A DNA stretch of 64,000 nucleotides from an uncultured Holophagales bacterium. Lineage in GTDB: Bacteria > Acidobacteriota > Thermoanaerobaculia > Multivoradales > UBA5704. Shown here one piece after another: positions 10,998-26,160 of this stretch (within the stretch, counting starts at the first letter, position 1; each line of letters begins with the position of its first letter). The notes beneath the pieces were generated by a model. It searched no databases. It was given only the letters and a program-made list of their open reading frames with translations, and had not been told where the DNA came from. The DNA is taken from the NCBI GenBank assembly GCA_963842525.1, contig CAWJGT010000009.1, forward strand, positions 1,056,001-1,120,000, given 5' to 3'. A program made the translations under genes and the position numbers.

Positions 10998-11153
10998 TCG
11001 GGAGTGAGCTCCCATTTTGGTCTGACCAAACGGGAGCATACTCCGCGAATAGCTGTGGCCGCAAGGAAGGACGGTCCGGTAGCGGCACGCCGAGCAAGAG
11101 GGCGATCCAGATCCGGAATCGCCCCCCTTTTGCCTCTCTACGTTACCGGAATG

Positions 11154-11456
11154 TCAGGGGCACTCTCCCCCGGGACAGCACAGGAACTGGTTGCAGAGGC
11201 AGCGGTTGGAGGGGGTGCAGAAGCAGGCGGGCTGGTAGGGGCATGGACAATCTGCGACCGTGGAGCATGGTGTGCCGGCCAGAAAGATGGCCGACTCGAG
11301 GGCCTGAAGATCTTCGTAGGCCTGAGAATCAGCGCCATCGAGGACCTGCTTGCACTCCTTGGCCGTGAGGTCTGCCCACGGCTCTGCCGCCGTCGCCTGA
11401 CCCGCGAAGCTGAACAGCAAGACCAATGCGAACACAACCAAGAGTCTCGTTCTCAT
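11154..11456 (-). CDS. Small secreted Cys-rich peptide precursor
   Basis: Strong RBS AAGGAGG, Sec signal ending ATA-A, acidic spacer, then a C-terminal ~40 aa with 10 Cys. Confidence 0.8.
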   Translation of the reverse strand: MRTRLLVVFALVLLFSFAGQATAAEPWADLTAKECKQVLDGADSQAYEDLQALESAIFLAGTPCSTVADCPCPYQPACFCTPSNRCLCNQFLCCPGGECP

Positions 11457-11659
11457 TTCCTATCCTCCTTCCGTTGGTGGACAGCGCCTGCGGAGGAAAC
11501 CGTTCCGCCGCCCGCGCAGGCAGCCACTCTTCATGGTGCTCTGCGCCGCCGCAACGGGACGGACCCCCATCTGATGGGGGAGAAGGCCGGCCTGAGCCGG
11601 TTGCAGTAGAATCCAGCAGTAGCGGTCCCACAGTCGTCGACTTGAATCGAGGAGGTCTC

Positions 11660-12853
11660 ATGAAGTGGCTCGTCCTCACAGCGCTCGCTCTCCTCGCAGG
11701 GAATCCCTCAGCACTTGGTACGGCTGATGTGGTGAAGGAGGCCCACCTGGGCTCGCTGCAGGAAGGCGAGTTGCAGAAGCTCCTCGATCAGTTGCGGAAA
11801 GACGCCGGAGCCCCTGGAGCCATCCTTGGCATAGCTTCGGGGGACGGTCATCTCAAGGTTGTGGCGAGCGGCCAAGCCGACCGCGAGGCCGGCAGGCCGA
11901 TGGCCCCCGACACGCCCTATTTTCTCGGCAGCATCACCAAGACCTACACCGCCGTGGTCATCCTGCGTCTTGCAGAAGAAGGACGCCTCTCTCTCGACGA
12001 TCCCATAGCGCGTTTCCTACCCGCGTTCCCGGAGGGATCGAAGATCACCATTCGCCACCTCCTCACGCACACCAGCGGCCTGAAAGACTTCTATTCGCAT
12101 TTCTACTACCGGCCTGACCGCGAAGAGATGATCAGGCTGGTCACGAAGCGGTGGACGGAGGAGGAGCTTCTCGAGCTGTCTGGCCGTTTTGGCCGCTGGT
12201 TCGATCCCGGTACGGATTGGGATTACAGCAACACGGGCTACTACCTCCTCGGCGTCATCATCGAGCGCGCCAGCGGCCTGGCGTTGACTGAGGCGTACCG
12301 GCGCTACATCTACGAGCCTCTCGGCCTCCGCCGGACCTGGCTCGCCCAGCATGAAGAGGCGCGCGGGCCTTTGCCTGTAGGCTACATGGGGCCCGTGGAG
12401 GGCTGGAAACATTCCGAGATGTTTGGCGAGCTCGGATCCACAGCTGTGTTGGACCAGTCTTCGGTGGAGCTGAGCGCGGGCGGCCTGGCGGCCCCGGCGG
12501 AGGAGAGCCTTCAATTCCTCCGCGGGCTTTTTACAGGGAAGCTCCTGGCCCCCGCGTCGCTGGAAGCCATGCAGGGGTTTCGTGCCACGCCCTCTCTCGG
12601 CCTGTTCAGCAAGAGCGCGGCGCCTCCCAGCAAATTTGAAGGCTACGGCATGGGCTTCGTGAAGATCGAGCGTGCGGGCGTCACGCTCCTGGGGCATGGA
12701 GGGTTGTTCACCGGCCATGCGGCGGGGGTGTGGCACATCCCCGAACGCGGCATCACGTTCGCTCTGTACTTCAATCGTGGTCTCATCGATCAACGGCCAG
12801 CGCTGGATCAGGTGATCCACGTCGTGACGCGCCCGATTAAAGTGCCGGATTAA
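11660..12853 (+). CDS. Serine hydrolase, beta-lactamase class C / D-Ala peptidase-like
   Basis: GGAGG RBS, signal peptide, SITK (SxxK), YSN, HGG. The last codons and stop come from the repeat array at 12835. Confidence 0.9.
   Translation: MKWLVLTALALLAGNPSALGTADVVKEAHLGSLQEGELQKLLDQLRKDAGAPGAILGIASGDGHLKVVASGQADREAGRPMAPDTPYFLGSITKTYTAVVILRLAEEGRLSLDDPIARFLPAFPEGSKITIRHLLTHTSGLKDFYSHFYYRPDREEMIRLVTKRWTEEELLELSGRFGRWFDPGTDWDYSNTGYYLLGVIIERASGLALTEAYRRYIYEPLGLRRTWLAQHEEARGPLPVGYMGPVEGWKHSEMFGELGSTAVLDQSSVELSAGGLAAPAEESLQFLRGLFTGKLLAPASLEAMQGFRATPSLGLFSKSAAPPSKFEGYGMGFVKIERAGVTLLGHGGLFTGHAAGVWHIPERGITFALYFNRGLIDQRPALDQVIHVVTRPIKVPD
12795..12832 (+). repeat. 38-bp direct repeat, left copy
   Basis: GGCCAGCGCTGGATCAGGTGATCCACGTCGTGACGCGC, 37/38 identical to 25275-25312. 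Confidence 0.95.
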
Positions 12854-12903
12854 AGTGCCACCCAATTCGGATTAAAGTGCCGGATTAAAGTGCCACCCAA
12901 TTC
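12835..12903 (+). repeat. REP-like motif array: 4 x GATTAAAGTGCC arranged as a 35-bp unit x2
   Basis: Copies at 12835, 12848, 12870 and 12883; ACCCAATTC follows the 2nd and 4th. Confidence 0.92.
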
Positions 12904-12979
12904 AATCCCGCACCTCGGCGATTTCGATGAGGTGCAGCCTGGATCGATCGAACGACCGCGCGCAGAAGGGGGATCGAAC

Positions 12980-13288
12980 ATGGCACAGGTAGCCTTGGGA
13001 TTGCTCGTCCGTCTGGAAGCGAAGCCCGGCAAGGAAGAAGAGGTCGAGAATTTCCTGCGAGGCGGGCTGGCGATCGTCGACGAGGAGCCGGCGACGATCG
13101 CATGGTTTGCGATCCGCCTCGGCCCGACGACGTTCGGCATCTTCGACGCCTTCCCGGATGAAGCCGGCCGGCAGGCCCACCTCACGGGCCGGGTCGCGGC
13201 AGCGCTGATGGCGAAGGCGCCGGACCTGTTCGCCCAGCCGCCTGCCATCGAAAAGGTCGACGTCCTGGCGGCCAAGCTGCCGGGGTGA
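12980..13288 (+). CDS. Antibiotic biosynthesis monooxygenase (ABM) family protein
   Basis: LLVRLEAKPGKEEEV, FGIFDAFPDEAGRQAHL, IEKVDVLAAKL. Confidence 0.88.
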   Translation: MAQVALGLLVRLEAKPGKEEEVENFLRGGLAIVDEEPATIAWFAIRLGPTTFGIFDAFPDEAGRQAHLTGRVAAALMAKAPDLFAQPPAIEKVDVLAAKLPG

Positions 13289-13875
13289 CCGAGAACGAAG
13301 GACGGGCGCCGCAGGGCGGCTCTCAGGTCCGAAGCAGAGGCGAGAAGGCCGCCGCCGAGAACGGCGCCGCCCTGCCGCTCGTGCAGGAGGATGCGCAGGC
13401 CGGGTGAGGGCGTGACTTCCCTGGCCAGGCGGTGTTCCGCAGAGATGGCCCAGTCCATGACCACCCAACCCGCCGGGTCCACCGCTGGCGGCCCTCGACA
13501 TCTTCAGGAGATCGTCGTCTAGAACTCCTGGATCGCTCTGGCTACCAGCTTGAGGAGGGTTCGACCTCCGGCGCTCGTCAGGAGGGAGAGCCGCGGATAG
13601 CGATATTGACAGGGTGGGATCACATGCTCGCCAGACTGGCAAGCGGGGACCTGAGGCTCGGCAGCGAGCCGATCGTAGACCTGCCAGTCAGACTGGCTCT
13701 GCGCAGCGAAGGCGGAAGCCCATCCTTCCCGGGAGGGCGGCATCAGTTTGGCTCGGAACGGAACGGACGAAGCGTTCGGCGCGGGACAGGTCCCGGAAAT
13801 AAGGTCCTGGCGCGCGGGGTGCTGCTGGGGTTCGGGGAGGGGCAGCGGGATTAGGCACAATGCTGAAATTCTTTT

Positions 13876-14295
13876 GAGGTACCTCGGAACCGTTCGGAGG
13901 TACCGGAAAAAACTTCCGAGGTACCTCAGAAGTTTTCTGAGGTGCCCCAAAAACTTTTCGAGGTACCTCGGAACCGTTCGGAGGTACCGGAAAAAACTTC
14001 TGAGGTACCTCAGAAGCTTTCCGAGGTACTCCAGAAACTTTTCGAGGTACCTCGGAACCGTTCGGAGGTACCGGAAAAAAGTTCTGAGGTACCTCAGAAG
14101 TTTTCCGAGGTACTCCAGAAATTTTTTGAGGTACCTCGGAACCGTTCGGAAGTACCGGAGAAAACTTCTGAAGCCCGCCAGATCTCTTCAGAAGCGCTCC
14201 AGAATTCCTCGGAAGCTCCGGAGAACGGACCGGAAGTCCCGGAGAATCGTCAGGAAGCCCTCTCAAATCGTCCTCAAGCACGCCAGAAGCCTCGC
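13876..14295. repeat. 21-bp tandem array with 84-bp higher-order period
   Basis: 13 units start GAGGT (13876, 13897 ... 14128) in ABCD order, then ~7 degenerate GAAG-start units. Contains the palindrome GAGGTACCTC. Confidence 0.95.
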
Positions 14296-14308
14296 CTGCC
14301 CTCTCCTG

Positions 14309-14850
14309 TCAACTGGGCTGCGCCTGCCCGAAGCGGAGAGAAGGATCTGTCCGCGCCTCCTGAAGATACCTCGCATACTCCCGGACCGACCGGACCGTGA
14401 GCTGCTCCTGTCGCGCGGCCTCCTGGAAGAGCATCAGCGCGGCGACCGCTTCGCGATGGACGTCCTGCGCCTGGAAGATGGGGAAGATCTCCTCCGCCAG
14501 CCGCTTTACGTCCGCCACGCGCCCTTCCCGGACATAGAGGAGCGCGAGGTCCTCGATCGACACCATGGCCGCGTCATACCCGATGCCCTGGGCAAGGAAC
14601 CCGTCGCGCACCTGGAGGAAGATACGTTCGGCCTCCTCGCTCCGTCCGAGCCCGGCGGCGATCTTGCCCTGGAGCCACGAGAGCCGGAGCTGTGTCCACG
14701 CCTCGGGGAACTCCCGGTAGAGGCCCTCGTCCAGGACGAGCATCTCCGCCGCCTCGCGGTACTGGCGGTCCTCCGTCAGATACCGGGCCAGATTGTTGTA
14801 CCGCGCACAAAGGTAGAGCCGCGAGTCGTCCTCGGTCCGGATCGCCTGGG
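14309..14850 (-). pseudogene. C-terminal fragment of a TPR-like helical protein
   Basis: [58 protein letters not shown]. No 5' part; it abuts the intI remnant. Confidence 0.65.
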
Positions 14851-15267
14851 ATGGCGCATCGGTGGCCTTTCTGGAGCACCCACCGCTCGCCTTCCGCCAT
14901 GGGAGGGAGGGGGGCGGTCCGCGTCCGCCACCTGCCCGTGGTGCTCACGCGGGAGGAGGTCAGGAGGATTCTCTCGTACATGACCGGCGGCGACCATCTC
15001 TTCATCTCTCTCCTGTACGGCACAGGTATGAGGCTGGCCGAGTGCCAGCGTCTGCGGGTCAAGGATCTCGACTTCGCCCAGCACCAGATCACGATCCGCG
15101 ATGGGAAGGGTGCAAAGGACCGGGTCACGATGTTGCCCGAGACCCTCGCGCCCGCCCTTGTTGGGCGACAATTAGAACTGCGGGGTGACGACAACTAGAA
15201 TTGCGGGTTTCCAGCCCTCGTAAACGCCTGTCCCGTAGGCTCTTGGCCCTCATGAATTGGGGGGCTG

Positions 15268-16744
15268 ATGTTGACGGATAGGCAGGTAAGGAGATTGAGG
15301 ATGGAACTTGGCAAGGGAGAGTCGTTGTCGAGCGCAGCTCTGCGCTCCGGGATGAGTGAGAACACGGCTCGGCGGTATCGCGAGGGTGGGCTTCCGGGCC
15401 AGCGCAGGGTGGTGCGGCAGTATCGGACCCGGCCGGACCCGTTTGCCGGGGTGTGGCCTGAGATCGAAGGGATGCTCGAGCAGGCGCCCGGCCTGGAGGC
15501 GGTGACGATCTTCGAGGCTCCTGAGGGGGCGGCCGGAGCTGAGCTTTTCGGATGGTCAGCTGCGTACGTTGCAGCGGCGGATCCGTCGTTGGCGGGCGTC
15601 GCAGGGTCCCGAGCGGGAGGTGATGTTCGCGCAGGAGCACCGCCCGGGGGAGTACGCCCAGAGTGATTTCACGAGTATGACGGAACTGGGCATCTGCTTC
15701 GGAGGCGAGCCGTTCGACCACCTGGTGTTCCATTTTGTGTTGCCGTACTCGAACTGGGAGACGGGCGGGATCTGCTTTTCGGAGAGTTTTGAGGCTCTGA
15801 TCAGTGGCTTCCAGGCCGCGGTCTGGGAGCTGGGCAAGGTGCCGAAGCTGCACCGGACGGACAACCTTTCGGCGGCCACCCACGAGTTGGGCGAGGGGGG
15901 CCGGACGTTCAACGAGCGCTACCTGGGTGCGCTCGCGCACTACCAGGTCCAGCCCGACTGCAACACCCCTGGGCGTGGCCACGAAAACGGCGATGTGGAG
16001 CAGGCGCACCACCGCTTCAAGCGGGCGGTCCAGCAAGCGCTTCTGCTGCGGGGAAGCCGGGAGTTTTCGAGCCGCGCCGCGTACGAGGTGTTCTTGGGGG
16101 AGATCTTTTTGGGGCGCAACCGGGGCCGTGCCGACAAGCTGCGCGAGGAGCTGGAGCAGATGAGGGATCTGCCGCTGTCGCGCCTGGACGATTTCCGGCG
16201 GGAGCGGGTCCGGGTCAGCGTGTTTTCCACCCTGCGGGTGTCCAACAACGTCTACTCGGTGGCCTCGCGGCTGATCGGCGAATGGGTGGACATTCGGCTG
16301 TATGCGGAGCGGATCGAGGTGCACTTCGCCGGCGAACGGGTGGCCGAGATGGATCGCCTTCGGGGCCGCGGCCACGCCGCCATCGACTATCGCCATCTGA
16401 TCTGGTCGTTAATCCGCAAACCGGGAGCGTTCGCGCGCTACCGGTACCGGGAGGCGCTGTTTCCGAGCCTGGTTTTCCGGCAGACCTACGATGCGCTGGA
16501 GGGGCGGCACGGGGCGCGTGCGGACGTGGAGTACGTGCGGATCCTGCACCTGGCGGCGAGCACGGGAGAGAGCGCGGTGGAGGGTGTGCTGGCGGCCCTG
16601 TTGGAGAGCGGCGAGCTGCGGGACTTCGCTCAGGTGCAGACGGCCCTTCGGCCGGTGCGCCTGGAGCCGCCGGTGTGCCGGATCGATCCTCCGGACCTTC
16701 GGGTCTACGACGAGTGCATCGCCGCGGCAGGAGGTGGCCTGTGA
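15268..16744 (+). CDS. istA: IS21 transposase with a +1 frameshift near 15517 (real or sequencing error)
   Basis: HTH GMSENTARRY, RTRPDPF, AQSDFT, RTDNLS, ENGDVE. Split over ORFs 15268 and 15569. Confidence 0.9.
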
Positions 16745-17517
16745 AGCCGGCCAGCGAGGCGGGATTGCCGCTGCTGCTGAAATCGTTGTGCCTGCCGACC
16801 TTCGCCCGGGAGTACGCGACGGTGGCCGTCCAGGCGGTGCGTGGGGGGCTCACCCACGAGGGGTATCTGCTGGCTCTGGCCGAGCAAGAGGCCAGCGAAC
16901 GGTGCGAGCGCCGGGTGGAGAGACTGCTTCAGGAGTCCAGGCTGCCGCGAGAAAAGAGCCTGGCGGGCTTCGAGGTGGGCCGGCTTCCACCCAAGGCCAG
17001 GGCGGCCCTGGCCGCTCTTCAGGACGGCTCGTTTCTTGACCAAGCCACCAATCTGATCGTGTTTGGCAACCCCGGGACCGGCAAGTCTCACCTGGTCTGC
17101 GGTCTGGGCCAGGAGCTGGTGCGCGGGGGCCGGACGGTGCTGTTTTCCCCGACGTACCAGATCGTCCAGCGGCTCCTGGCCGCGAAGCGGGATCTGCGCC
17201 TGGCGGCCGAGCTGAAGCGGCTGGACCGATTCGAAGCCCTGATCCTGGACGACCTCGGCTACGTCGAGCAAAGCCGCGAGGAGATGGAGGTTCTGTTTAC
17301 CCTGATCGCCGAGCGGTACGAGAGGCGCTCGGTGCTGATCACCAGCAACCTGGTGTTCAGCAAGTGGGAGCAGATTTTCAAGGACCCGATGACGACGGCG
17401 GCCGCGGTGGATCGGATCGTCCACCATTCGGTGATCCTGGAGCTGAGCATCGAGAGCTACCGGGCACAGGCGGCCAAGGAGAGAGCTGCGGGAGCCAAGG
17501 GGGCCCGCGGGGCGTGA
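16741..17517 (+). CDS. istB: IS21 helper ATPase
   Basis: GNPGTGKS, LILDDLGY, ERYERRSVLITSN, AAVDRIVHH. Confidence 0.95.
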   Translation: MKPASEAGLPLLLKSLCLPTFAREYATVAVQAVRGGLTHEGYLLALAEQEASERCERRVERLLQESRLPREKSLAGFEVGRLPPKARAALAALQDGSFLDQATNLIVFGNPGTGKSHLVCGLGQELVRGGRTVLFSPTYQIVQRLLAAKRDLRLAAELKRLDRFEALILDDLGYVEQSREEMEVLFTLIAERYERRSVLITSNLVFSKWEQIFKDPMTTAAAVDRIVHHSVILELSIESYRAQAAKERAAGAKGARGA

Positions 17518-18239
17518 GCTCCAGAGCTTGGATGGGCCATGCTACCGCGCATAATTGCAATCGCTGAAGGATGCCCGCAGCTGCGGGCATCCTTCCCTGC
17601 TAAGTCCCTGCCCCCCGGAAGGAGGTCAAGAGCCGACCAGCCCCCACCCGGCCCCCTGAAAGAAGCTCCCCCCGCCCCCCGTAGGAGTGTTGACACGAAC
17701 TGGAGGAGGATCCCGCAGTTCTAATTGTCGCCGACCCTCAATTCTAGTTGACGCCGGACACGCCCTCGAGGAGCATCTGCGCAGTGTGCGAGAGCAACAT
17801 CGCAAGGATCTCGCCGAAGGCCACGGCCGGGTCCATCTTCCTTATGCGATCGAGAGAAAATACCCACGAGCGGCAGCGGAGTGGGGTTGGCAGTGTCCTG
17901 AACCGTGGGGGGAAGGGGGTCTTGAGCCTTCTCGACAACCTGTAGCTTAGACGACCGGCGGCTGACGCAAGGGACTTCACAGCACTCTCGGCAAGTCGCT
18001 GCCTTGCCGAGACTTGAGCCCTGCCTCTAGGACGGCTTCATGCCCCCCTTCCAGCCGCAGATCGCTCTTTTGCACCTGATCTCGGGCGACCTTCTCTGAC
18101 GCATAAGAACTTCTCGTGTACCTGAAACGCCAAGCGCACGTGGAGTCAGATGCGATCTTCTCGACCGCCTTCGCTTGCCAGGCATGACGTGGTCGCGACC
18201 TCGCGGGCACAGGGGCCACAGAGTGCTTATGTGCGGCCG

Positions 18240-18263
18240 GGGCGGTGTTGACGCACGTTAGGA
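18240..18263 (+). other. Candidate attI core (GTTAGGA at 18257)
   Basis: First GTTRRR-like core between the intI 3' end and the first cassette ORF. Positional inference only. Confidence 0.35.
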
Positions 18264-18302
18264 AGAGGTGTAGAGTCAACTAAGTCGAAGAGGATAAGCA
18301 CC

Positions 18303-18611
18303 TTGCACGCCCGCAACCCTGGGCCCGGCCGTGGAGTCAACCCCCAGGTTGCGTCGCATGGGTGGGAAAAGCTGCAGCGCCTAGTCAAAATGCGAAATGA
18401 TTTAACCCATCCTAAGAGTGTGCATGACACCCTGTTAAGCCCTGAGATGCCCAACGTCATTCGCGATGCAGCAGTCTGGTTCTTGGGGTGCATGCGTGAT
18501 CTTATTGCGACGGCCGACACCCAACTGCTGGAACAGAGCTTCAAGGAGACGGCGAAGATGCCAGAAATGCAGAAGCTACTAGCTGAAAGGGCAGCTCGAA
18601 AGGAGAAGTAG
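18303..18611 (+). pseudogene. Cassette 1: 5'-truncated HEPN-like ORF
   Basis: RNDLTH (Rx4H) motif in a helical context; no convincing start; followed by attC. Confidence 0.55.
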
Positions 18612-18622
18612 TTGAAACCGCC

Positions 18623-18682
18623 GCCGAACCCCGCTGCTCAACCGGATGGCTGCGCCACCGGTTAGCAGCAACAGCGTTCTAC
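18623..18682 (+). other. attC site 1
   Basis: GCCGAAC...GTTCTAC with internal palindrome TGCT(C)AACCGG/CCGGTTAGCA. Confidence 0.88.
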
Positions 18683-18725
18683 GCCAAAGGTACACCGGCA
18701 GCGCGAATGACCGACGAACCATTCC

Positions 18726-19052
18726 ATGAGCCGAACTTTTGAACAGATCGTCAGGTTGGTGGCAAGCCGTGATGTGCGGGTCTCGGTGCATGGCTATGAC
18801 GAACTCGCAGCTGATGGTATTCTCGTCCGCGATGTTGTCGCTGGTGTCCACGAAGGTGAGGTGATTGAAGACTATCCAGACTATCGAAAAGGCCCTTGCG
18901 TTTTGGTGTTGCAAAAGGATCAAGGCGGCACGCCGATTCATGTTGTGTGGGGTATCCCCAGCGGCAAATCATCCCCAGCCGTAGTGGTGACGGCGTATAG
19001 ACCGAAGCGCGAGAAATGGACCGACGACTACAAACGCAGGAGAAGGCAATGA
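18726..19052 (+). CDS. Cassette 2: DUF4258-family toxin
   Basis: SVHGYDEL, IEDYPDY, PIHVVW, VVVTAYRP..W. Confidence 0.85.
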   Translation: MSRTFEQIVRLVASRDVRVSVHGYDELAADGILVRDVVAGVHEGEVIEDYPDYRKGPCVLVLQKDQGGTPIHVVWGIPSGKSSPAVVVTAYRPKREKWTDDYKRRRRQ

Positions 19053-19261
19053 GTACGCGCCACAGGAAGTTCGTTCATGAAGGAGAGTACGCTGCGGAGG
19101 TCGAGGTCGATCTCATCGAGGCAGAGGAGGAGTGGTCCCCATATTTGTCACTTGAGGATGCTGAGAAGCTCGATACTGTCCGCGAAGCCCTTCGCCGCGG
19201 CGATGTCAGAGAAGCAAGCAAGGTGGGGCGCGTATTCCGACTGACTCCGCTGTCGGCATGA
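19049..19261 (+). CDS. Cassette 2: putative antitoxin partner
   Basis: ATGA overlap. KFVHEGEYAAEVEVDL..WSPYLSLEDAEKLD. Confidence 0.75.
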   Translation: MSTRHRKFVHEGEYAAEVEVDLIEAEEEWSPYLSLEDAEKLDTVREALRRGDVREASKVGRVFRLTPLSA

Positions 19262-19273
19262 TGACACGCTGGC

Positions 19274-19332
19274 GTAGAACCCAGGCTTGCAGCGCACAGC
19301 TTCGCCGTCGCTGAAGCCCAGCAGCGTTATGT
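19274..19332 (+). other. attC site 2
   Basis: GTAGAAC (complement of the cassette's own GTTCTAC)...GTTATGT. Confidence 0.9.
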
Positions 19333-19388
19333 GACATGGCAGCGTAGGCGTAGAGGCCTCGCGCATGTGATCCCGGAGCATCCGTAGC

Positions 19389-20018
19389 ATGCCATCACTC
19401 TCGGCTCTCCAACTCCTTCTTGCCGCGCTTACTGGAGCGGCGGGCGCCTTAATCATACGGATTGTCCTAAGACTCTACCTCCGCTCCAGAGAGTCCAAGA
19501 GAGCGCTAGCAGTTTACTATTGTGGTAAGCGATCGCCGACGCCAGGTGGACTCGATCACGGCTGGGGCCAAGAGTCAAAATCAAAAGGCCCCTCTGGCCG
19601 TAATGTATGGTTATACACAGAGGAGCCTACCGACCAAATACACCCTCGTGAGCATACAATATACGGCCCCTATGTAAACGACCTTGGGCGGCCAGGATAC
19701 TACCGAGTAGCCTTCTCAATCTGTGCTAAGAACTTCTTGCAGAACTCAGACAGATCTGTATTGTTACTAGATGTAGTGCAGGCACCCTTTGGAGGCACTA
19801 CAACCTATGTCTTGCATGGGCAGCGACTGATTAGGGAAGACGAACTAGCAAGCGGTAAGGAGCAATACAATACCTATGAAATCGAATTCTATGCACCCGG
19901 AACTGGAGTTTATGAATACCGTGCACGGGTGTTCGGAAGCAATGTGACTCGCGATCAAACGGTTGAGTTTGACACAATCCGTGTTTTCCGCAATACTCCC
20001 CTGTGGGAGGTGTTCTAG
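19389..20018 (+). CDS. Cassette 3: hypothetical protein, N-terminal TM plus beta-rich domain
   Basis: Low-GC ORF filling the attC2-attC3 interval; IYGPYVNDLGRPGYYRVAFSI. Confidence 0.8.
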   Translation: MPSLSALQLLLAALTGAAGALIIRIVLRLYLRSRESKRALAVYYCGKRSPTPGGLDHGWGQESKSKGPSGRNVWLYTEEPTDQIHPREHTIYGPYVNDLGRPGYYRVAFSICAKNFLQNSDRSVLLLDVVQAPFGGTTTYVLHGQRLIREDELASGKEQYNTYEIEFYAPGTGVYEYRARVFGSNVTRDQTVEFDTIRVFRNTPLWEVF

Positions 20019-20030
20019 GGTGGAGAGGGC

Positions 20031-20090
20031 ACATAACCCGGGCGCTGCACAGGACGGCTGACGCCGCCTGTGAGCTTCCACTCGTTGGGC
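20031..20090 (+). other. attC site 3
   Basis: ACATAAC (complement of GTTATGT)...GTTGGGC. Confidence 0.9.
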
Positions 20091-20143
20091 GTCTCTAAGA
20101 AGAGCGATGGCTACTACAGCCCGATCGAATAGGAGGAAAGCCA

Positions 20144-20665
20144 ATGGCGAGACTTGCGGCTATTCCGGCGAGTGCGGCTAGTGCGCTTAGTTCTACGCCA
20201 TTCTGGCGAGGGGAGTTTCGCCCTGAAGCTGTGGGCTTGCCTCCAGTGACATTCAAGCTAAGGCAAGTGTTCGTGTTGATGCCGATGGAAGGCGAAGAGG
20301 CGGAGGAAATCTACCGGACACTGAAGGCCGCCTGTGCGACAGTCGATCTGATAGCAACGAGGGTGGACGAGAGGGTCGGTGCCCGAATCATTATGCAAGA
20401 TATCGACCGAATGATGGGAGAGGCCGAGTTTCTCATATTTGATCTAAGTAAAGAGCGCCCAAATGTCTACTATGAACTCGGCTATGCCCATGGTATTGGC
20501 AACAATGCCGAGAACATCTTATTAATAGCCCGCGAAGGCACGCATATTCACTTTGATGTTGCACCTCTACGGATCCAGTTCTATCGATCGACCGATCACC
20601 TCCAGTCTCTTGTTGCCTCACAGCTAAGCGCAATGAAGCAAATCACACGAGGATTGGTACGATGA
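20144..20665 (+). CDS. Cassette 4: nucleoside 2-deoxyribosyltransferase-like protein
   Basis: AGGAGG RBS; VFVLMPM, AEFLIFDLSKERPNVYYELGYAHG, HFDV. Confidence 0.8.
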   Translation: MARLAAIPASAASALSSTPFWRGEFRPEAVGLPPVTFKLRQVFVLMPMEGEEAEEIYRTLKAACATVDLIATRVDERVGARIIMQDIDRMMGEAEFLIFDLSKERPNVYYELGYAHGIGNNAENILLIAREGTHIHFDVAPLRIQFYRSTDHLQSLVASQLSAMKQITRGLVR

Positions 20666-20724
20666 ATTGCACTGGCCGGCAGTCTGAGCTGCGTCGGCGG
20701 TTCCAGGGCGTACTGCCAATCGGC

Positions 20725-20801
20725 GCCCAACCCCGGCTGTCGAGCGGACGGAAACCGCAAACAGCGCGGTTCCCGCTCGCTCACCTTCTGCGGCGTTGGC
20801 C
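20725..20801 (+). other. attC site 4
   Basis: GCCCAAC (complement of GTTGGGC)...GTTGGCC. Confidence 0.9.
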
Positions 20802-20816
20802 GTCGCAGGAAGCTAA

Positions 20817-21494
20817 ATGGCTGATCTGAAGCTGCATCACATTGGAGAGCCCTTGGTCGCCAGGATGCTTCAGAAGCTTGAGGCGGCCGGGCGGCTCTCG
20901 AACTTGGTCTGCGAGCGTATGCACGTCTCGGTTGAGGATGACATCGTTGCTGGGGGACTTCAAAGGCCGATCGAGTTCTTTCCGGAGAGAGCAACCCTCG
21001 GTGTCTCGGCCAATGGTGAAGAATTGATCTGTGATGGCGCACAGAAGGTTGATGTCCTCTGCGTGAGTAGTGGCCAGCGGGCCATGGCGTTCGAGCTCAA
21101 GCTGGGAGAGGAGCGACTTGGGACCAACGAGTTCGAGAGACGGTTCTTGGGAAAGTGCTCCACTTCCCATGCTGGTTCTCGGCTCAAGGGCTCAATGATC
21201 TCTGTACTTGATCGCAGTTTCTTGAGGACCGACGCGGCGGTTCTCCGGGCATCCGCATCGCCTCCTACTGGTGGGCCTATCAAGAAGTGGGATGTCGTCC
21301 GTCCTTGGTGGCTGGTCATCAGGAACAGTGTTTGGTTCCGATGGAAACAGTCCGGGATACCGGGCTTGACCAATGGGCGTATCCTCGTCATCGAGAAAGT
21401 CGTCCGAGAACTCGGAGGCGAGGAGGTCTTCAATGGTTTGGTCCGTGAGGTTCTATGCGGCAACTTTTTCGAGGCGTGGGAGATAGGTCAGTGA
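20817..21494 (+). CDS. Cassette 5: hypothetical protein, possible PD-(D/E)XK nuclease
   Basis: KVDVLC...AFELKLG pattern. Confidence 0.65.
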   Translation: MADLKLHHIGEPLVARMLQKLEAAGRLSNLVCERMHVSVEDDIVAGGLQRPIEFFPERATLGVSANGEELICDGAQKVDVLCVSSGQRAMAFELKLGEERLGTNEFERRFLGKCSTSHAGSRLKGSMISVLDRSFLRTDAAVLRASASPPTGGPIKKWDVVRPWWLVIRNSVWFRWKQSGIPGLTNGRILVIEKVVRELGGEEVFNGLVREVLCGNFFEAWEIGQ

Positions 21495-21500
21495 ACCGCC

Positions 21501-21562
21501 GGCCAACCAAGCGGCTCCAGCGGACGGCTGACGCCGCGCGCTGAGCCGCCACAGCGTTAGGC
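21501..21562 (+). other. attC site 5
   Basis: GGCCAAC (complement of GTTGGCC)...GTTAGGC. Confidence 0.9.
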
Positions 21563-21579
21563 GTTTTGAGGCAGCACCT

Positions 21580-22278
21580 ATGAATCGAACTGAAAAACTG
21601 AACGAACTGCGAGCCCTCGCGCAGAACAAGCCGACGATCCCAAACGAGGAATTCGGCGCATGGCAAGCGCGGGTGTCGGCGCTCATTGGTTTCGACCGTC
21701 TGCAACAAGACAAGTTCCGCCACTTGGCGAGTTCGGCGACGATTCCCGGTGACGACTTCTTCCCGTCGTGCATGCGCCAGATGGAACAGATCCTCTTCCA
21801 AGCCATAGCGGACTTGGAGGTTGGTCCAGATGTCCCAGCCGAGCCACCTGCCGAATCCGGGAAGCCAATAGACGTATTCATCAGTTATTCGACTACCGAC
21901 AGAGCGATTGCAGAGGAGTTAGCCAATCGTCTCAGAGCACTTCAGCTTACAGTCTTCTTGTCGCACGACACCATCACAACGGGACCCGCATGGCGTTCAC
22001 AAGTCGGTGTCGTCCTTCGTCGCTGCGGCGTAGCAGTGCTGCTCTTGAGCACGCAATCACTCCACAGCGATTGGGTTCGTTACGAGATTGGAGCATTATG
22101 GGCACTTAATAAGCCTGTCGCTCCGGCTCTGCTCGACTGTGATGCATCTCAACTTCCTGAGCTTGTGCGCGATTTCCAATCACGCTCAGTTGCAACCGCC
22201 TCAGATCGCGCCGTCTTTTGCCACGAAGTGGAAAGACTGGTCCGCGATACTCGAACAAATGACAACCGAAACGCCTAA
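21580..22278 (+). CDS. Cassette 6: TIR-domain protein
   Basis: DVFISYSTTD, VFLSHDTI, SDWVRYEIG (catalytic E). The stop lies in GCCTAAC, the R'' of a truncated attC. Confidence 0.9.
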   Translation: MNRTEKLNELRALAQNKPTIPNEEFGAWQARVSALIGFDRLQQDKFRHLASSATIPGDDFFPSCMRQMEQILFQAIADLEVGPDVPAEPPAESGKPIDVFISYSTTDRAIAEELANRLRALQLTVFLSHDTITTGPAWRSQVGVVLRRCGVAVLLLSTQSLHSDWVRYEIGALWALNKPVAPALLDCDASQLPELVRDFQSRSVATASDRAVFCHEVERLVRDTRTNDNRNA

Positions 22279-22280
22279 CC

Positions 22281-22380
22281 GGAAATAAGTGCCAGCCGAA
22301 TCTAGCCTGGCCCAAACCCGAAATGAGTGGCCCAAACCCGAAATGAGTGCGGCCGAAATGAGTGCCCGAAATGAGTGCCA
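22281..22380 (+). repeat. REP-like motif array: GGAAATAAGTGCCAGCCGAATCTAGCC then 4 x CCGAAATGAGTG
   Basis: Read directly. The last copy is split by the IS110 element and resumes at 23918 (CAGCCGAATCTAGCCT). Confidence 0.9.
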
Positions 22381-22399
22381 CCCATTAGAAGGCTCTTGT

Positions 22400-22820
22400 C
22401 AACGACCCACACGTCTCCCACCCGGGAGTGTTCGTTTCAAGAACGGCTCGTTCCGGCAAGATGTGCTCCCGTGTCGGGTTTGCGCGCCCGTAGTCTCGCT
22501 GTGCTTCAGGTGCGGAGATCCGCACCAGCCACCCATCGGGATCAAGGCGGGTCGGAGCCGGTGACGGCTCCGACCCGCCCCTGGCACGGTTTGCGTGCCC
22601 CCAGAAAATCTTCGGTTCCAGGTTCGTGTCCAAGGTTCAGGACAACCAATAAGGCTACCTCCTCCCCCCGAAGGGGGTTCAGAGGTGCCAGCACATTCGG
22701 GCTCACGACCTGGGCGCATCTCCGACAAAAGAGCCAAAAACGGTGGAAGACAGGGGCCAATCAGCCGTAGAGGGTTCTTTCGCCCAGCACCTAATTGCAG
22801 GCTCCCTGTCTTCCACCTGA
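22400..22820 (-). ncRNA. Candidate bridge/seekRNA region
   Basis: Non-coding end of the IS1111-type element. Perfect stems 22546-22579 and 22742-22755/22804-22817; short matches to target and donor junction. Confidence 0.6.
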
Positions 22821-22821
22821 A

Positions 22822-23838
22822 TCAACCAAAAGCTTGCGCCGACCTGAACGGCACCTGGTCGCGCAGGATGTAGAACGCGGCACGAGTCAGCTTGTTCGAG
22901 ATCGTCCGCAGGGCCACCAACTCGTTGGTCCTGGCCCGCTTGCGCTCGTAGAGACGCTTGGCGAGGGGCTCGAACCGAATGGCGAAATGTGAAGCCTCCA
23001 TGAACGCCCAGGACAGGTACGGGTTGCCATTGCGTACGTTGCCGGAACCCTTGACCTTGCCGTTGCTGAGGTGCTGACTGGGTACACAGCGGCAGTAGGA
23101 GGAGAAGTGGCCCGCCTCGGCAAAGCGAGCGATGGAGCCGGTTTCGTACATGATCGTCAGGGCAAGGGTCAGACCGATGCCGGGAATGCTCTCGAGCAGC
23201 TCGAACTCGGGCCTCAGTCTGGCCTGTTTGAGAACAGTTTTCTCGATGCCAGAGATTTGGTCTTTCAGCGTGCGGGCGATCGCCAGGCTGCTGGTGATCG
23301 TCAAGGCGATATGTGGGTCCGTGAATTGCTCCTCGACCTGCTCGGCCGTCATGCGCTTGAGCTCGCTGAGGGGAACTTGCGCTCCGGTGTAGCGCGAGAA
23401 GACGTTTTTGACGCTCAGCAAGCTGGCGGTGCGCTGTCGCACCAGAAAGGCTCGGCGGCGCAGTAGATCTCGCACCGCGCGCTCCTTTTTCGGATAGATG
23501 TGACCGGTGGGCAGAATGTTGAGGTGGAGCAGGCGCGCCAGCCACCGCGCGTCATGGCGGTCATCGACGTACTTCAAGCCCTCGTACTGGCGGACAGCGG
23601 AGGTGTTGACCAAGCGAACCTCGTAGCCGGCCTCCATGAGCCCATCCACCAACCAGTACCAGTTGAAGGTGGACTCCACGGCGGTCGCCTGGATCTGCTC
23701 TCGGAAGGGCTCCAGGGATTCCAGGACCGCCTCCAGACGGTTGGGCACCCGCCTGCTGAGGACCGATTGCAGTTGCTCGTTCATCACCACGAGATAGCTG
23801 TTGGTTGAATGCAAGTCGATTCCACAGTAAAGTCCCAT
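22822..23838 (-). CDS. IS110 DEDD recombinase
   Basis: YCGIDLH, AVESTFNWYW, KYVDDRHDA, SIPGIG, SNGK, GNPYLSWAF. Confidence 0.95.
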   Translation of the reverse strand: MGLYCGIDLHSTNSYLVVMNEQLQSVLSRRVPNRLEAVLESLEPFREQIQATAVESTFNWYWLVDGLMEAGYEVRLVNTSAVRQYEGLKYVDDRHDARWLARLLHLNILPTGHIYPKKERAVRDLLRRRAFLVRQRTASLLSVKNVFSRYTGAQVPLSELKRMTAEQVEEQFTDPHIALTITSSLAIARTLKDQISGIEKTVLKQARLRPEFELLESIPGIGLTLALTIMYETGSIARFAEAGHFSSYCRCVPSQHLSNGKVKGSGNVRNGNPYLSWAFMEASHFAIRFEPLAKRLYERKRARTNELVALRTISNKLTRAAFYILRDQVPFRSAQAFG

Positions 23839-24171
23839 GCGCTCCTCCTTTCAGGGATTGGTCTCCCGACGAGCCTATCGCGGCTCGTCAGAAGGGAGGA
23901 GCCTTCTAGAGGATCATCAGCCGAATCTAGCCTCCTGAAGAGTCAATTGCACTGCCGAGCCGCGCTTCGGTGTGGCTTCGGTGCGCAAACTGGCAGGTGA
24001 AGGGCACCTGAGCACGCCGAGAGGTGGTCGCTCACTCCTTGTGTGGAGCGTTGAAAGCCTGTATCGCGCTTTTTGAGGGTTCCAGGGATAGACCTCTCCC
24101 GATCCCGCGCCAGGAAGTCAGCGGCCGGCCGGAAACTACGAAGGCTGTCAGCGGCCCGAAGTCCCGAGGGC

Positions 24172-25096
24172 CTACCCACTTACCCAGGGCAGGGCCGGCG
24201 GGAAGCTGCCTGCCGGGAAGACAACATCGCGCACTCCCGCCCGGAGCTTCTCCGCGGCGGTCCGGAAGGCGCCCACGAACTCGCCATAGGCTCGATAGAA
24301 CTCGAGACGGACGTTCTTGCTCGCCGCATGGAAGAGCGGAGCAGGAGATTTCTTCGGTTTGGCCGGCCGGTCGTGACGCTTCTGGGCGCAGACTGCTTCG
24401 GGACCCAGGACAGGACGGCCCATGGCCTCGCGGACCTCCGCAGCCCGAGACTCGATGCTGGCCACCAGAGCGGCGATCCGCTCGCGGTACTGTTGAGGAG
24501 TGAGATGCGCCCAGCAGGGGAGCTGCTCGAGCTTGAGGGTGTATTCGGTCGCGAAGTCGAGACGGTGGAAGGACTGGCCTCTCTGGCGGGCGGCGTACTC
24601 GCTCGAGCGGTTGAACCAGTGGCCGACGAGGAGAGCACCATCCAGCAGAGCGGGGACGACGCTGACGCCCGGCCAGTCCCGGAGGGTTTGGACAAGTCCC
24701 TCCTTGACCCCGTGGCTCAAAATGTACGCGAGGCGTTCGATCTGGGCCTGGGGCTCGTCGCTGATCGGGATGGCCTGAAAGCGGCGGGACCAGAACTTTT
24801 CCCGCCAGTCGGCCAGGCGCCCGGCTTCGCGGGCAAGATTTGAGTTGAAGTGATTCATGAATGAGGCGAGTCGGCGCGTGTCGTCGACCTGGAGAAGGAG
24901 GTGATAGTGCCCGGAGGCAAAGGCGAAGGCGATGAGGCGGACGGGGTAGAGCTGCCTGGGCGCGTCCGAGGGCGCCGAGGATGAGGTCATTGAGCTCCGC
25001 AGAGGGAGCGAGCAGGAAGCGGCCGTGGACGGTCCGTGTGGTGACCTCGACAAGTCCGCTCCCCTCGGGTGGCATGAAACGGAGTTTTCGACTCAT
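24172..25096 (-). CDS. RAYT-like Y1 HUH transposase with a +1 frameshift near 24955
   Basis: MSRKLRF..VEVTTRT, GHYHLLL (HUH), FWSRRF, LAYILSHGVKEGLV..DWPGVS. Flanked by inverted GTGCCAGCCGAA copies. Confidence 0.82.
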
Positions 25097-25232
25097 GCCC
25101 CTTAAAAAGACGTAAAACGGGTCGCCGATCTTGCATAACTCGGAAAAGTTCTTGCCGCGGACCGGAATGATGACTGAATGTCAACGGACGGCGGATCTGT
25201 GGAGGTAGTCCAGAGCGGTCCCGAGCGAAGCT

Positions 25233-25274
25233 GTTCGGCTGGCACTTCTGTCTGTTCGGCTGGCACTTCTGTCT
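25233..25274 (-). repeat. REP-like motif array: 2 x 21-bp AGACAGAAGTGCCAGCCGAAC
   Basis: Perfect tandem, inverted relative to the arrays at 12835 and 22281. Confidence 0.92.
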
Positions 25275-25312
25275 GGCCGGCGCTGGATCAGGTGATCCAC
25301 GTCGTGACGCGC
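25275..25312 (+). repeat. 38-bp direct repeat, right copy (probable ancestral 3' end of the hydrolase gene)
   Basis: Continues in the hydrolase frame as VVTRNPASPERRPGR* with stop at 25346-25348. Confidence 0.9.
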
Positions 25313-25323
25313 AACCCAGCATC

Positions 25324-25532
25324 CCCAGAGAGGCGGCCAGGGCGGTAGTCACCAGGGACCAGAAGAGCTCTGCGCCGGGATAGACCGCGAGCAGGCGGAA
25401 AAAGCTCCTGGCGCGCAGACGTTCAAAATTGTTCGACCATCGTGCGCGTTCGTCCGGATTGGACAGCAGCGGCAGCAGTGGCGTCTCCACTCCGATGCGG
25501 AGGATCAGATTGGCCGAAACGATTCCGGGCGC
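25324..25532 (-). repeat. 209-bp duplicate of 26198-26406 (3' part of the large membrane-protein gene)
   Basis: About six mismatches by eye. Confidence 0.93.
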
Positions 25533-25586
25533 TGCACCAAGGTGCCAGCCGCCCCTGAGGCACTTATTTCGTGGCGAGCACTTAGA

Positions 25587-25853
25587 TTAGGGGAAGTATC
25601 TGTAGATATCTCGGCGGTGGAGAATTCTGACCAGCGTTGCTTGGTCGCCTTCGATCATAAGACCCAGGCGGTAATCACCGATACGGATGCGATAGTACGC
25701 TCCGGGACCTTGGAGCTTTCTGAGCTGAGGGATCTCTCCAATCCCATCGGCGCACTCAACCGCCTCGATGACTCGCTTGACACGAGCCCGAGCTTCCGGC
25801 TGCCGGAGCTGCCGCAAGTCCCTGGCGAAGCTCTCGCGAAAGCTGGTTTTCAC
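25587..25853 (-). CDS. relE: RelE/ParE-family toxin
   Basis: SFARDLR, KLQG..YYRIRIGDYRLG, HRRDIYRYFP. Confidence 0.92.
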   Translation of the reverse strand: MKTSFRESFARDLRQLRQPEARARVKRVIEAVECADGIGEIPQLRKLQGPGAYYRIRIGDYRLGLMIEGDQATLVRILHRRDIYRYFP

Positions 25854-26053
25854 TCTTCGAGGATCCGGAAAACCTCGTCTCGCCCCACAGGCAGGCTCTG
25901 CTCGCCTTCACGGATCGCATGGACCATGCCGATGTCCTCCAGAGCCTCTTCCAAGAGATCCAGCACAAGATCCCTGCGCTCTTCGAGTACCTCGATCATG
26001 GCCGTCTCGACCAGATTCTTGATCCTGCTGTCTTCAATGCTCGCGTCCGCCAT
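25850..26053 (-). CDS. Antitoxin partner of RelE
   Basis: Acidic 67 aa, EALEDIGMVHAIREG..VGRDEVF; overlaps the toxin start. Confidence 0.82.
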   Translation of the reverse strand: MADASIEDSRIKNLVETAMIEVLEERRDLVLDLLEEALEDIGMVHAIREGEQSLPVGRDEVFRILEE

Positions 26054-26160
26054 ACTTCCTCCGCTGTTGCGGCTACTCTATGCCACCCCACCCCGCACTT
26101 CCACCCAGGCGGCCGATCACACGGATCATACCGGAGCCTGGGTGTGAAAATTGGAGCAAC

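Follow-up and report, generated by a model that had tools for sequence, protein, structure and literature searches.

Transposases of the Y1 type in the IS200/IS605 family of insertion sequences (IS) move single strands and leave no duplications. Blocks of tens to hundreds of bases at the 3' ends of genes, with a few silent differences, are typical att sites of integrase-borne islands and of their integrase-less, att-flanked derivatives. Some insertion sequences home to the ends of other elements; IS4321 and IS5075 insert into the terminal repeats of the Tn21 family, and the IS1111-attC group targets attC. REP-associated tyrosine transposases (RAYTs; REP, repetitive extragenic palindrome) are not known to transport cargo or to cause duplications, neither being mentioned in the titles and abstract openings surveyed. 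For IS1549 and IS1634, long variable target duplications of 8-514 bp are reported without a model for them (PMC2266710). Members of the IS1111 group are reported to insert site-specifically, guided by RNA and without duplication, and some of them to home to transposon terminal repeats or attC (PMC11187229). Here, a 64-kb stretch of DNA (the window; G000:C9:1056001-1120000, within a 1.98-Mb contig) from the genome of an uncultured Holophagales bacterium (9.95 Mb, 34 contigs, 67.7% G+C) was analysed, in which a 12.4-kb interval (12795..25312) is bounded by two copies of a 38-nt direct repeat and by arrays of the motif AAGTGCC. An original prediction, made from the letters of the window, had seen in this interval a possible RAYT/REP-driven island.

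The 12.4-kb interval is very probably a decayed composite mobile island with an integron core, capped by outward-facing ends of the kind carried by Y1 gene units, and not one clean element. It sits as an insertion within an overlap of about 86 nt between the 3' ends of two convergent genes, and profile and DNA comparisons divide it into a mosaic of at least four mobile units. The repeats, end arrays and flanking genes are located as follows.

11426..12853, plus strand: left flanking gene for a serine hydrolase of the beta-lactamase fold, its 3' end interrupted (PF00144, E 1.8e-61)
12795..12832, no strand: left copy of the 38-nt direct repeat (repeat search)
12835..12903, plus strand: left end array, two exact copies of a 35-nt unit composed of GATTAAAGTGCC-G and GATTAAAGTGCC-ACCCAATTC-G (repeat search)
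22286..22379, plus strand: complete motif copy (AAGTGCCAGCCGAATCTAGCCT), then stuttered half-sites, two of 20 nt followed by units ending GAAATGAGTGCC (repeat search)
23918..25272, minus strand: Y1/HUH gene unit (PF01797; 85% DNA identity to the intact unit C3:734106-735348)
25231..25272, minus strand: right end array, two copies of AGACAGAAGTGCCAGCCGAAC (on the plus strand a 21-nt unit, CTGTTCGGCTGGCACTTCTGT, in exact copies; repeat search)
25275..25312, no strand: right copy of the 38-nt direct repeat; the ancestral hydrolase tail comes next, with its stop at 25346-25348 (repeat search, frame walk)
25324..25532, no strand: orphan copy of a 209-nt direct repeat, starting 11 nt past the 38-mer (repeat search; 203/209 identical to 26198-26406)
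25533..26197, minus strand: second insert of 665 bp, with a RelB-like antitoxin (25850-26053) and a ParE toxin (25587-25853; Pfam)
26161..29379, minus strand: right flanking gene, 1072 amino acids (aa), weak TPR match (Pfam)

The two copies of the 38-mer match at 37 of 38 positions, the fifth base being the mismatch, and their 33-nt exact core occurs at just these two sites in the whole genome, as expected from the 38-bp duplication that had been claimed. Walking along the reading frames showed that the hydrolase now has 475 codons up to a TAA at 12851, the last seven of them (stop counted) deriving from the insert, and that it would have 480 codons up to a TAG at 25346 if the insert were absent. 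A metagenome homologue with 75% identity ends in ...VTRNP..., which resembles the continuation of the right copy (VTRNPASPERRPGR, then the stop) and not the present tail (VTRPIKVPD, then the stop), so that both the frame and the homologue agree with the original view of the right copy as the ancestral junction. Contigs of four public soil/urban metagenome runs were compared with 11000-27500, a comparison in which uncovered stretches of the island are uninformative. Run X1 contains two contigs identical to the hydrolase gene and one contig, of depth 2.6, in which 12799 directly adjoins 25280 and 12480 bases are skipped, corresponding to the empty-site form. This contig gives modest support for an empty site, as it is single and of low depth and as a k-mer graph can miscross a 33-nt exact repeat. 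The hydrolase C-terminus together with this contig argues for an insertion rather than an ancestral arrangement. For the empty site that the original prediction had proposed to look for in a relative, this one contig is the sole indication: none of 40 relatives compared by DNA search was syntenic (the lone substantial hydrolase match showing 74% identity over 735 nt) and no metagenome contig matched a two-motif empty-site pattern. The neighbouring gene was absent from the three metagenome loci with hydrolase homologues.

At present the final 11 codons of the right flanking gene are supplied by the second insert, and the gene contains the gene-attached copy of the 209-nt repeat (26198-26406). 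Without both inserts, the frame walk gives it 1080 codons with a stop at 12785. Because the frames of both flanking genes extend past the junction when both inserts are removed, the 38-mer is placed inside a former convergent overlap of about 86 nt (12783-12832 joined to 25313-25348), and such an overlap of the hydrolase with the 1080-codon repeat protein is unusually long. The 38-mer itself folds no better than its shuffles. No tRNA was found in the 64-kb window, in line with what had been stated before, and no Rfam family reached its gathering score across 11000-27500.

A multi-copy gene unit for a 307-aa Y1/HUH protein has the motif AAGTGCC (AGCCGAAC) as its terminal inverted repeat. The left array is a variant of this terminal repeat in which the outer half is stuttered and GTGCC begins 9 nt from the 38-mer, and in the right array GGCAC stops 8 nt short of the 38-mer; both caps face outwards and share the end consensus N6-8 AAGTGCC A[G/C]CC.... 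The four copies on the left and the two on the opposite strand on the right were found at the positions described originally, and the arrays are unique to this locus. All four genomic copies of the 12-mer GATTAAAGTGCC lie in the left array, whereas the 17-mer AGAAGTGCCAGCCGAAC has seven, two in the right array and five elsewhere, and one copy stands upstream of a paralogue on contig C3 that is 90% identical to the Y1 gene of the window. Counted on both strands of the genome, AAGTGCC occurs 565 times versus about 1100 expected from base composition, and since the 7-mer is under-represented, its six occurrences at the two island edges are not attributable to chance. The exact 14-mer of the motif is present 12 times here versus 0-2 times in each of 25 relatives, which is the control level and makes the relatives unusable for testing whether motif and repeat are associated. 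Clustering by motif context put everything into one cluster, and when the folding of seven arrays into hairpins was compared with that of shuffled sequences, six gave z values from -1.25 to +0.36 and one gave -2.35.

The Y1 gene of the window extends from 25096 to about 24172 on the minus strand (PF01797 match, E 1.1e-5), has a conserved leader and, compared with the C3 paralogue, carries a +1 frameshift near 24955-24962. Its start lies 135 nt from the right array, close to the distance of some 140 bp given originally, and this array is the upstream terminal repeat of the unit, the downstream one being split by an IS. The intact C3 paralogue possesses an HYH motif (HUH) and a tyrosine within AYILSHGVKEGL / AYILSHG, and the 307-aa protein obtains 47.6 bits with NF047646, the NCBI model for REP-associated transposases, under the cut-off of 80. 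The intact C3 unit (locus L012) has its gene at 1854-2777 on the minus strand. The ends of this unit are inverted, with AAGTGCCAGCCGAA at 1601-1614 versus TTCGGCTGGCACTT at 2929-2942 and 2967-2980 and with the AAGTGCC half outward, and its outer half is tandemly repeated together with 5-7 flanking bases (GGCACTTCTGCC, GGCACTTCTGCCG, GGCACTTCCGCC). Two units on contig C19, 57% identical, have related inverted ends (TTGAGGTGCCAG... and ...CCAGGCACCTATTC) and stutter again. The supposed link of the motif to the Y1/HUH gene is thus substantiated by inverted terminal repeats that flank intact paralogous units.

Within this genome, the Y1 family comprises one intact 307-aa open reading frame (ORF; C3), two full-length alignments (C19), the frameshifted copy of the window, one partial copy and at least seven fragments. 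Three loci in metagenome-assembled genomes (MAGs) of Thermoanaerobaculia encode Y1 proteins with 82-84% identity, and at two of the three a tandem unit containing GGTGCC is located upstream of the Y1 gene, tandem GGTGCCACCC among them; the repeated unit is GGTGCCACCCTCTTCCGC at one locus, a longer unit ending GGGGTGCC is found at another and a single GGTACCACCCC at the third. Among 8000 scored proteins, at least 3173 were homologues at E<=1e-10, mostly of 305-307 aa and carrying the JGI name 'REP element-mobilizing transposase RayT'. No flanking duplication was found at any of the three autonomous Y1 units (C3, two on C19), so that a long duplication is not a routine signature of the Y1 enzyme. 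Of the original RAYT/REP proposal, the part that holds is that the motif belongs to a Y1/HUH gene and that outward-facing ends bound the island, but the arrays lack REP hairpins, the motif is low-copy and the gene is multi-copy. A leader of 50-60 nt upstream of the Y1 start (25092-25160; on the gene strand ...TTGCATAA...TTTTACGTCTTTTTAAGGGGCATG) recurs at seven other loci, for example C9:1435845, C1:716416 and C13:36952, and is conserved at loci where no copy of this Y1 gene is detectable; it may serve as a promoter or leader in common.

Stutters of the outer half-site occur at six loci of this genome. Inside the island, the motif copy and half-sites at 22286..22379 end in a GTGCC that is the left half of the site struck by an IS1111-type IS. 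The stutters of the end site AAGTGCCAGCCGAAC predict cuts between GTGCC and A and 8-9 nt outside, and under all models considered below the stuttered half-sites stay unaccounted for.

A mechanism that leaves variable long target duplications had been inferred originally, and the anatomy of the island recurs in this genome with repeats of 209 and 248 nt. The second insert of the window lies between the orphan and the gene-attached copies of the 209-nt repeat, and its left end, TGCACCAAGGTGCCAGCCGCCCCTGAGGCACTTATTTCG, consists of two inverted half-motifs with GTGCC beginning 9 nt from the repeat. An insert of 895 bp on contig C3 contains two small ORFs and lies between copies of a 248-nt repeat that differ at five positions; the left end of this insert (...TCAGGTGCCAGGCACTTATTCTCC...) is stuttered three times and its right end (...GTTCGGCTGCAC-(19 nt)-GGCACTTATTCGG) stands directly against the repeat. 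The spacing from GTGCC to the repeat edge is 9, 8, 8 and 9 nt at four of the six ends of these inserts and 20 nt at the fifth, the sixth having no clear motif. All three inserts lie at most 60 nt from the stop codon of a gene, and the repeat extends upstream into that gene.

A survey of direct repeats of at least 28 nt within 60 kb gave 1514 pairs. In this survey the 7-mer AAGTGCC was not enriched overall at repeat edges (9 pairs versus 13.8 boundaries expected), whereas in three of the 1514 pairs it lies inside both copies at a distance of at most 80 nt, versus about 0.03 expected by our own arithmetic from the survey density. Repeat edge and element end are therefore coupled, which argues against motifs that arrived later by chance. 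A scan for repeats of at least 14 nt beside inverted motif pairs returned this locus alone.

Several other repeat pairs were seen near the motif. A 138-nt repeat with eight differences (C7:36201-36338 / 56523-56660) flanks a 20.2-kb insert and has GGCACTT at most 22 nt inside both edges; it may represent a fourth instance of this anatomy and is the third both-edge pair in the survey. At C9:836659-836800 / 870869-871010, the last 78 nt of a gene and a solo motif site are present twice, 34 kb apart, one copy gene-attached and one orphan, in a layout that, unlike the three main cases, has repeat plus motif twice in the same orientation. Motif or Y1 remnants stand beside both copies at C9:161587/167821, again in a different layout. 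Further motif-edge pairs (C1:311495, C3:1432623, C19:136973, C34:224843, C3:1788614, C1:132481 and C25:55377) resemble paralogous coding repeats or chance and were rejected. A diversity-generating retroelement as the source of the 209-nt repeat was ruled out by eye, its differences not being adenine-specific, and no reverse transcriptase match was found.

The integron core of the island consists of an interrupted integrase remnant and a cassette array.

14869..15159, plus strand: remnant of an IntI-like tyrosine recombinase, cut by an IS21-family IS (TIGR02249 108.8 bits; PF00589 positions 2-79 of 172)
17750..17893, plus strand: second piece of the integrase remnant, model positions 168-215 (profile alignment)
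18623..22278, plus strand: cassette array with six ORFs and five attC-like sites (boxes, hairpins, Pfam, PADLOC)
18726-19052, plus strand: cassette ORF, DUF4258 (Pfam)
19016-19261, plus strand: cassette ORF
19389-20018, plus strand: cassette ORF
20144-20665, plus strand: cassette ORF, TIR-like (Pfam/PADLOC)
20817-21494, plus strand: cassette ORF
21580-22278, plus strand: cassette ORF, TIR_2 (Pfam/PADLOC)
18623-18682, 19274-19332, 20031-20090, 20725-20801 and 21501-21562: attC-like sites (R''/R' boxes, folds)

The first remnant matches residues 76-175 of a related integrase (284 aa) and positions 93-173 of the 315 of TIGR02249, with 108.8 bits on this model, whose whole-protein cut-off is 265, versus at most 57 on Xer models; the remnant gene has neither its N-terminus nor its catalytic C-terminus. 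The five attC-like sites measure 59-77 nt and show R'' ..AAC and R' GTT.. boxes (read by eye), variable paired arms and single-base bulges, and their bottom-strand folds gave z values of -4.84, -1.88, -2.53, -4.32 and -2.25. Two sequence classes of attC were found again at ten other loci, while a crude genome-wide attC scan, with 929 matches of which 659 were singletons, was too unspecific to define arrays. Judged by its sequence features, the region of 18.6-22.3 kb is an integron cassette array in which two cassettes are predicted to encode TIR-domain proteins. The attC of the last cassette is truncated by the motif directly after its R'' box GCCTAAC (22271-22277), and no attI was identified in 17.9-18.6 kb, which was inspected by reading alone. 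The original statement that there is no intact integrase and that the RAYT-like gene is the sole candidate enzyme is right for intact tyrosine integrases, but the island contains a broken IntI-like gene, an intact recombinase of the IS110 family and an IS21.

Some resemblances between the motif and integron sites were also seen. The first attC of the array has an R'' box (18623-18629) that exactly matches the inner half of the motif, GCCGAAC / GTTCGGC, and the 21-nt units of the right array have their borders between G and TT, where crossover takes place in integrons. That the motif is an ordinary attC was ruled out by its reversed half-site order and its lack of a hairpin. Elsewhere in the genome, a 2.7-kb element in three copies with 98-99% identity (C3:356326-359217, C9:1899673-1902559 and C25:537197-539904) encodes a 284-aa tyrosine recombinase, which scores 238.9 bits on the integron-integrase model, under its cut-off, and over the cut-off of NF040815. 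The copies diverge at the right end straight after ...ACACGTTG; in two of the three an attC-like site follows within about 0.6-1.3 kb, and the C9 copy has a TIR-type ORF just beyond its end. This element may be a repeated integron platform.

Two insertion sequences, a repeat array and a small ORF complete the interior.

13871..14171, no strand: about 14 palindromic 21-nt units with the core GAGGTACC (repeat search)
14309..14743, minus strand: 144-aa ORF of a multi-copy family, about 15 paralogous DNA matches in the genome (G+C at third codon positions 0.86)
15158..17769, plus strand: IS21-family IS with IstA-like and IstB genes (PF00665, PF22483, PF01695; terminal repeats)
22380..23917, minus strand: IS1111-type IS of the IS110 family, transposase at 22822-23838 (PF01548, PF02371; NF033542 188 bits, cut-off 140)

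The IS1111-type IS has a 442-nt non-coding region downstream of its gene and subterminal inverted repeats (TTAGAAGGCTC / GAGCCTTCTAGA) near its ends. It is inserted exactly between GTGCC and AGCCGAA of the downstream repeat of the Y1 unit, a point that could be fixed because the uninterrupted paralogous site is present in L012. Its flanks are alike across the genome, with (C)AGCCGAA on the right in four of five copies and GTGCC on the left in all three copies whose whole left end lies in host DNA. At C9:241644-243510, a copy of the same type lies within a target-like GGTGCCAGCACATTCGG in the downstream non-coding region of another copy, a case of self-targeting, as expected if this region encodes the guide. 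The IS21 has three other copies in the genome with about 95% identity. Two IS21 copies (C9:821933-824758 and C3:1636199-1639829) each adjoin half of an IS1111-type element, the break falling at one common position (window-equivalent 22908-22912), and this suggests an insertion of IS21 followed by rearrangement between IS21 copies.

The palindromic units with the core GAGGTACC are spaced by two helical turns and are also found at C9:191635-192132, C3:667140-667707 and L012:93-330, where each array adjoins a Y1 unit, an IS1111-type copy or a cassette; they resemble a protein-binding array, such as a partition or iteron site, and no Rfam family matched them at threshold. For the 144-aa ORF, no Pfam, NCBIfam or PADLOC family was found apart from a weak match to TPR_12. 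A repeat family of about 300 bp, which contains CGCGCCCACCCAATTCC...GCCCACCCATTTGATGG, occupies 16 sites and is often in tandem with a 313-bp period (for example C9:729208 and 729521, C12:129631 and 129944, C25:198614-199090 and C4:37334-37961), and its site at C9:41217-41608 adjoins a solo motif site.

For the origin of the long repeats we tentatively favour a model, with a probability of roughly 0.4, in which the composite element travelled as a circle carrying a piece of its flank and was integrated by homologous recombination. The Y1 enzyme would act in trans, as the local copy is frameshifted and an intact 307-aa paralogue exists on another contig, and would cut out elements at their ends, primary hops leaving no duplication, as for the three autonomous units. 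An occasional circle would take in part of one flank when an upstream pseudo-site replaces the true end, and a single crossover of the Campbell type in this flank stretch would then insert the circle into a chromosome that has the same gene without the element. The termini would end up directly against two copies that are alleles with mostly silent differences, the lengths of 38, 209 and 248 nt being set by the circle, and recombination between the copies would restore the empty site. In all three cases the copies differ by 2-3%, and seven of the twelve differences are silent: the lone difference of the 38-mer is silent in the hydrolase frame, the 209-nt repeat has two silent and four non-silent ones, and the five of the 248-nt repeat comprise two isolated silent changes, a double change CTC to TTG (Leu kept), an Ile to Val and a TAA to TAG. 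Two alleles are favoured over a duplication made in situ because an orphan copy that drifts should gain mostly non-silent changes. The threshold for recombination of the RecA type is about 25-30 nt, and as all three repeats are longer, they are open to homologous recombination. Several points weigh against this model. Neither a circle nor a donor nor a close genome with or without the island was found among the 40 relatives, in the metagenome pattern search or at the three hydrolase loci. The silent bias rests on twelve differences, four of the six in the 209-nt repeat are non-silent, and the same bias could arise under a true duplication if other alleles later converted the gene-attached copy. 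The 38-nt stretch, with 33 nt exact, is a poor substrate for homologous recombination, the model would require a one-sided read-out into the flank, and both the proximity of stop codons (at most 60 nt for all three inserts) and the stuttered half-sites are left unaccounted for by it. The X1 joint is one contig of depth 2.6 whose 33-nt exact repeat may have been miscrossed by the k-mer graph, and the left and right arrays may be remnants of two elements and not the ends of one.

The copies could instead represent a true long target duplication, in which the Y1/HUH enzyme, acting in trans, would join the inverted ends to nicks on opposite strands 38 to about 250 nt apart and repair synthesis would duplicate the stretch between them, the stuttered half-sites being by-products of repeated cutting and rejoining between GTGCC and A and at the terminus. 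The constant spacing of 8-9 nt between end and repeat at four of six ends, the three motif-ended inserts with differing repeat lengths, the half-site stutters at six loci here and the tandem repeats upstream of the gene at two of three MAG loci are all consistent with this, as are three of the four repeat edges in the window, which lie within 50 nt of one another like a preferred target, and the precedent of 8-514 bp in IS1549/IS1634 (PMC2266710). However, all three autonomous Y1 units are without any duplication, the Y1 transposases known from IS200/IS605 move single strands and make none, the differences between copies are biased to silent ones, the local Y1 gene is frameshifted, and no repeat shorter than 33 nt was seen in the scan from 14 nt upwards, although a variable stagger should give short ones; we therefore regard such a duplication as rather unlikely. 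The more far-reaching proposal that the 306-307-aa 'RayT' Y1/HUH family represents unrecognised transposable elements with true terminal inverted repeats, which move multi-kb cargo (here a whole integron and toxin-antitoxin cassettes) by two opposite-strand nicks tens to hundreds of bases apart and leave long variable duplications and stuttered ends, is doubtful, and no HUH enzyme is known to integrate by such a two-nick, long-duplication route. A transposase of the IS1634 family was rejected as the driver, since its near-complete genomic gene (one TAG inside) sits in a locus with no RGTGCCA, two partial copies on C12 being outside the scan.

Unrelated events at a hot spot would also bring repeats and motifs together, if an old site-specific integration, driven by a tyrosine integrase now decayed, had left the 38-mer as its att block and the arrays and the Y1 unit arrived later, small elements preferring such junctions or gene ends. 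A tyrosine-recombinase remnant is indeed present in the island, blocks at 3' ends with a few silent differences are typical of integrase islands, the two inserts are neighbours, as tandem accretion at a single att site would produce, and at least four mobile units make up the mosaic of the island. Yet the remnant resembles an integron integrase and stands ahead of a cassette array of its own, by which it is accounted for as an IntI, and IntI does not integrate islands; it is moreover 2 kb from the repeat. The adjacent 38- and 209-nt repeats differ in sequence and share no att core, and five independent later insertions would be needed, each 8-20 nt from a repeat edge and facing outwards, so that this explanation is given somewhat less credence than a true duplication. 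That the duplication of the 38-mer or the placement of the island is a mis-join of the assembly is very improbable: the best public run contained just 0.28 of the sampled words, but one base distinguishes the two copies, whose flanks are unique within a 1.98-Mb contig, an insertion explains the gene frames on both sides, and the same anatomy is found on another contig.

Soil metagenomes contain very many Y1 proteins that bear the RayT annotation without belonging to a classical REP system, and the locus supplies a concrete anatomy for one such family, with stuttered terminal inverted repeats, cargo derivatives, long flanking repeats and a putatively RNA-guided IS that homes to its ends. If the Y1 enzyme moves cargo, it would be a new vehicle for integrons and for defence or addiction cassettes in a phylum that has received little study. 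Should the long repeats be true target duplications, they would offer a second system, unrelated to IS1634, in which the making of such duplications can be studied, and if they are blocks of homology, they would show how an element without integrase can spread among related strains when it takes part of its landing site along. The locus lends itself to experiments, as it offers one intact gene, a 15-nt site and a clear read-out.

Compared with RAYT/REP systems, the locus shares a Y1 HUH protein, a gene flanked by its cognate inverted repeat, a lineage-specific motif and small inverted half-site doublets. It differs in that the gene is multi-copy with many fragments and the motif low-copy, the opposite of REP/RAYT, in that the arrays are not extragenic palindromes folding as hairpins, and in the 47.6 bits of the 307-aa protein on NF047646, well short of 80. 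Like IS200/IS605 elements, the units have a single Y1 gene, multiple and decayed copies and no target duplication at the three autonomous units, whereas they possess terminal inverted repeats with stuttered outer halves in place of subterminal hairpins on one strand, and no TnpB partner was seen in the Y1 units examined. With IS1634/IS1549 the locus has in common direct repeats of tens to hundreds of bases whose length varies by copy, but those elements encode a DDE transposase inside, and none is present in the three inserts here. A repeat at the 3' end of a gene is present, as in integrase-borne islands, but the sole tyrosine recombinase is the broken IntI-like remnant 2 kb off. A chromosomal integron is resembled in the IntI-like gene, the five bulged attC-like hairpins, the small cassettes of the same orientation, including those for TIR proteins, and a toxin-antitoxin pair, the latter located just outside the island; the differences are an integrase that is broken and oriented with the cassettes, a last attC that is cut and an array that lies inside a repeat-flanked insertion. 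The IS1111-type IS agrees with its group in its DEDD transposase, subterminal inverted repeats, long downstream non-coding region and orientation-specific insertion at one position without duplication, whereas its target here is the terminal repeat of a Y1 unit, which also contains the attC-box-like GCCGAAC. The assembly as a whole is a combination of known kinds, namely a Y1 family with terminal inverted repeats, an integron cargo and an end-homing IS, and the origin of its long repeats is testable.

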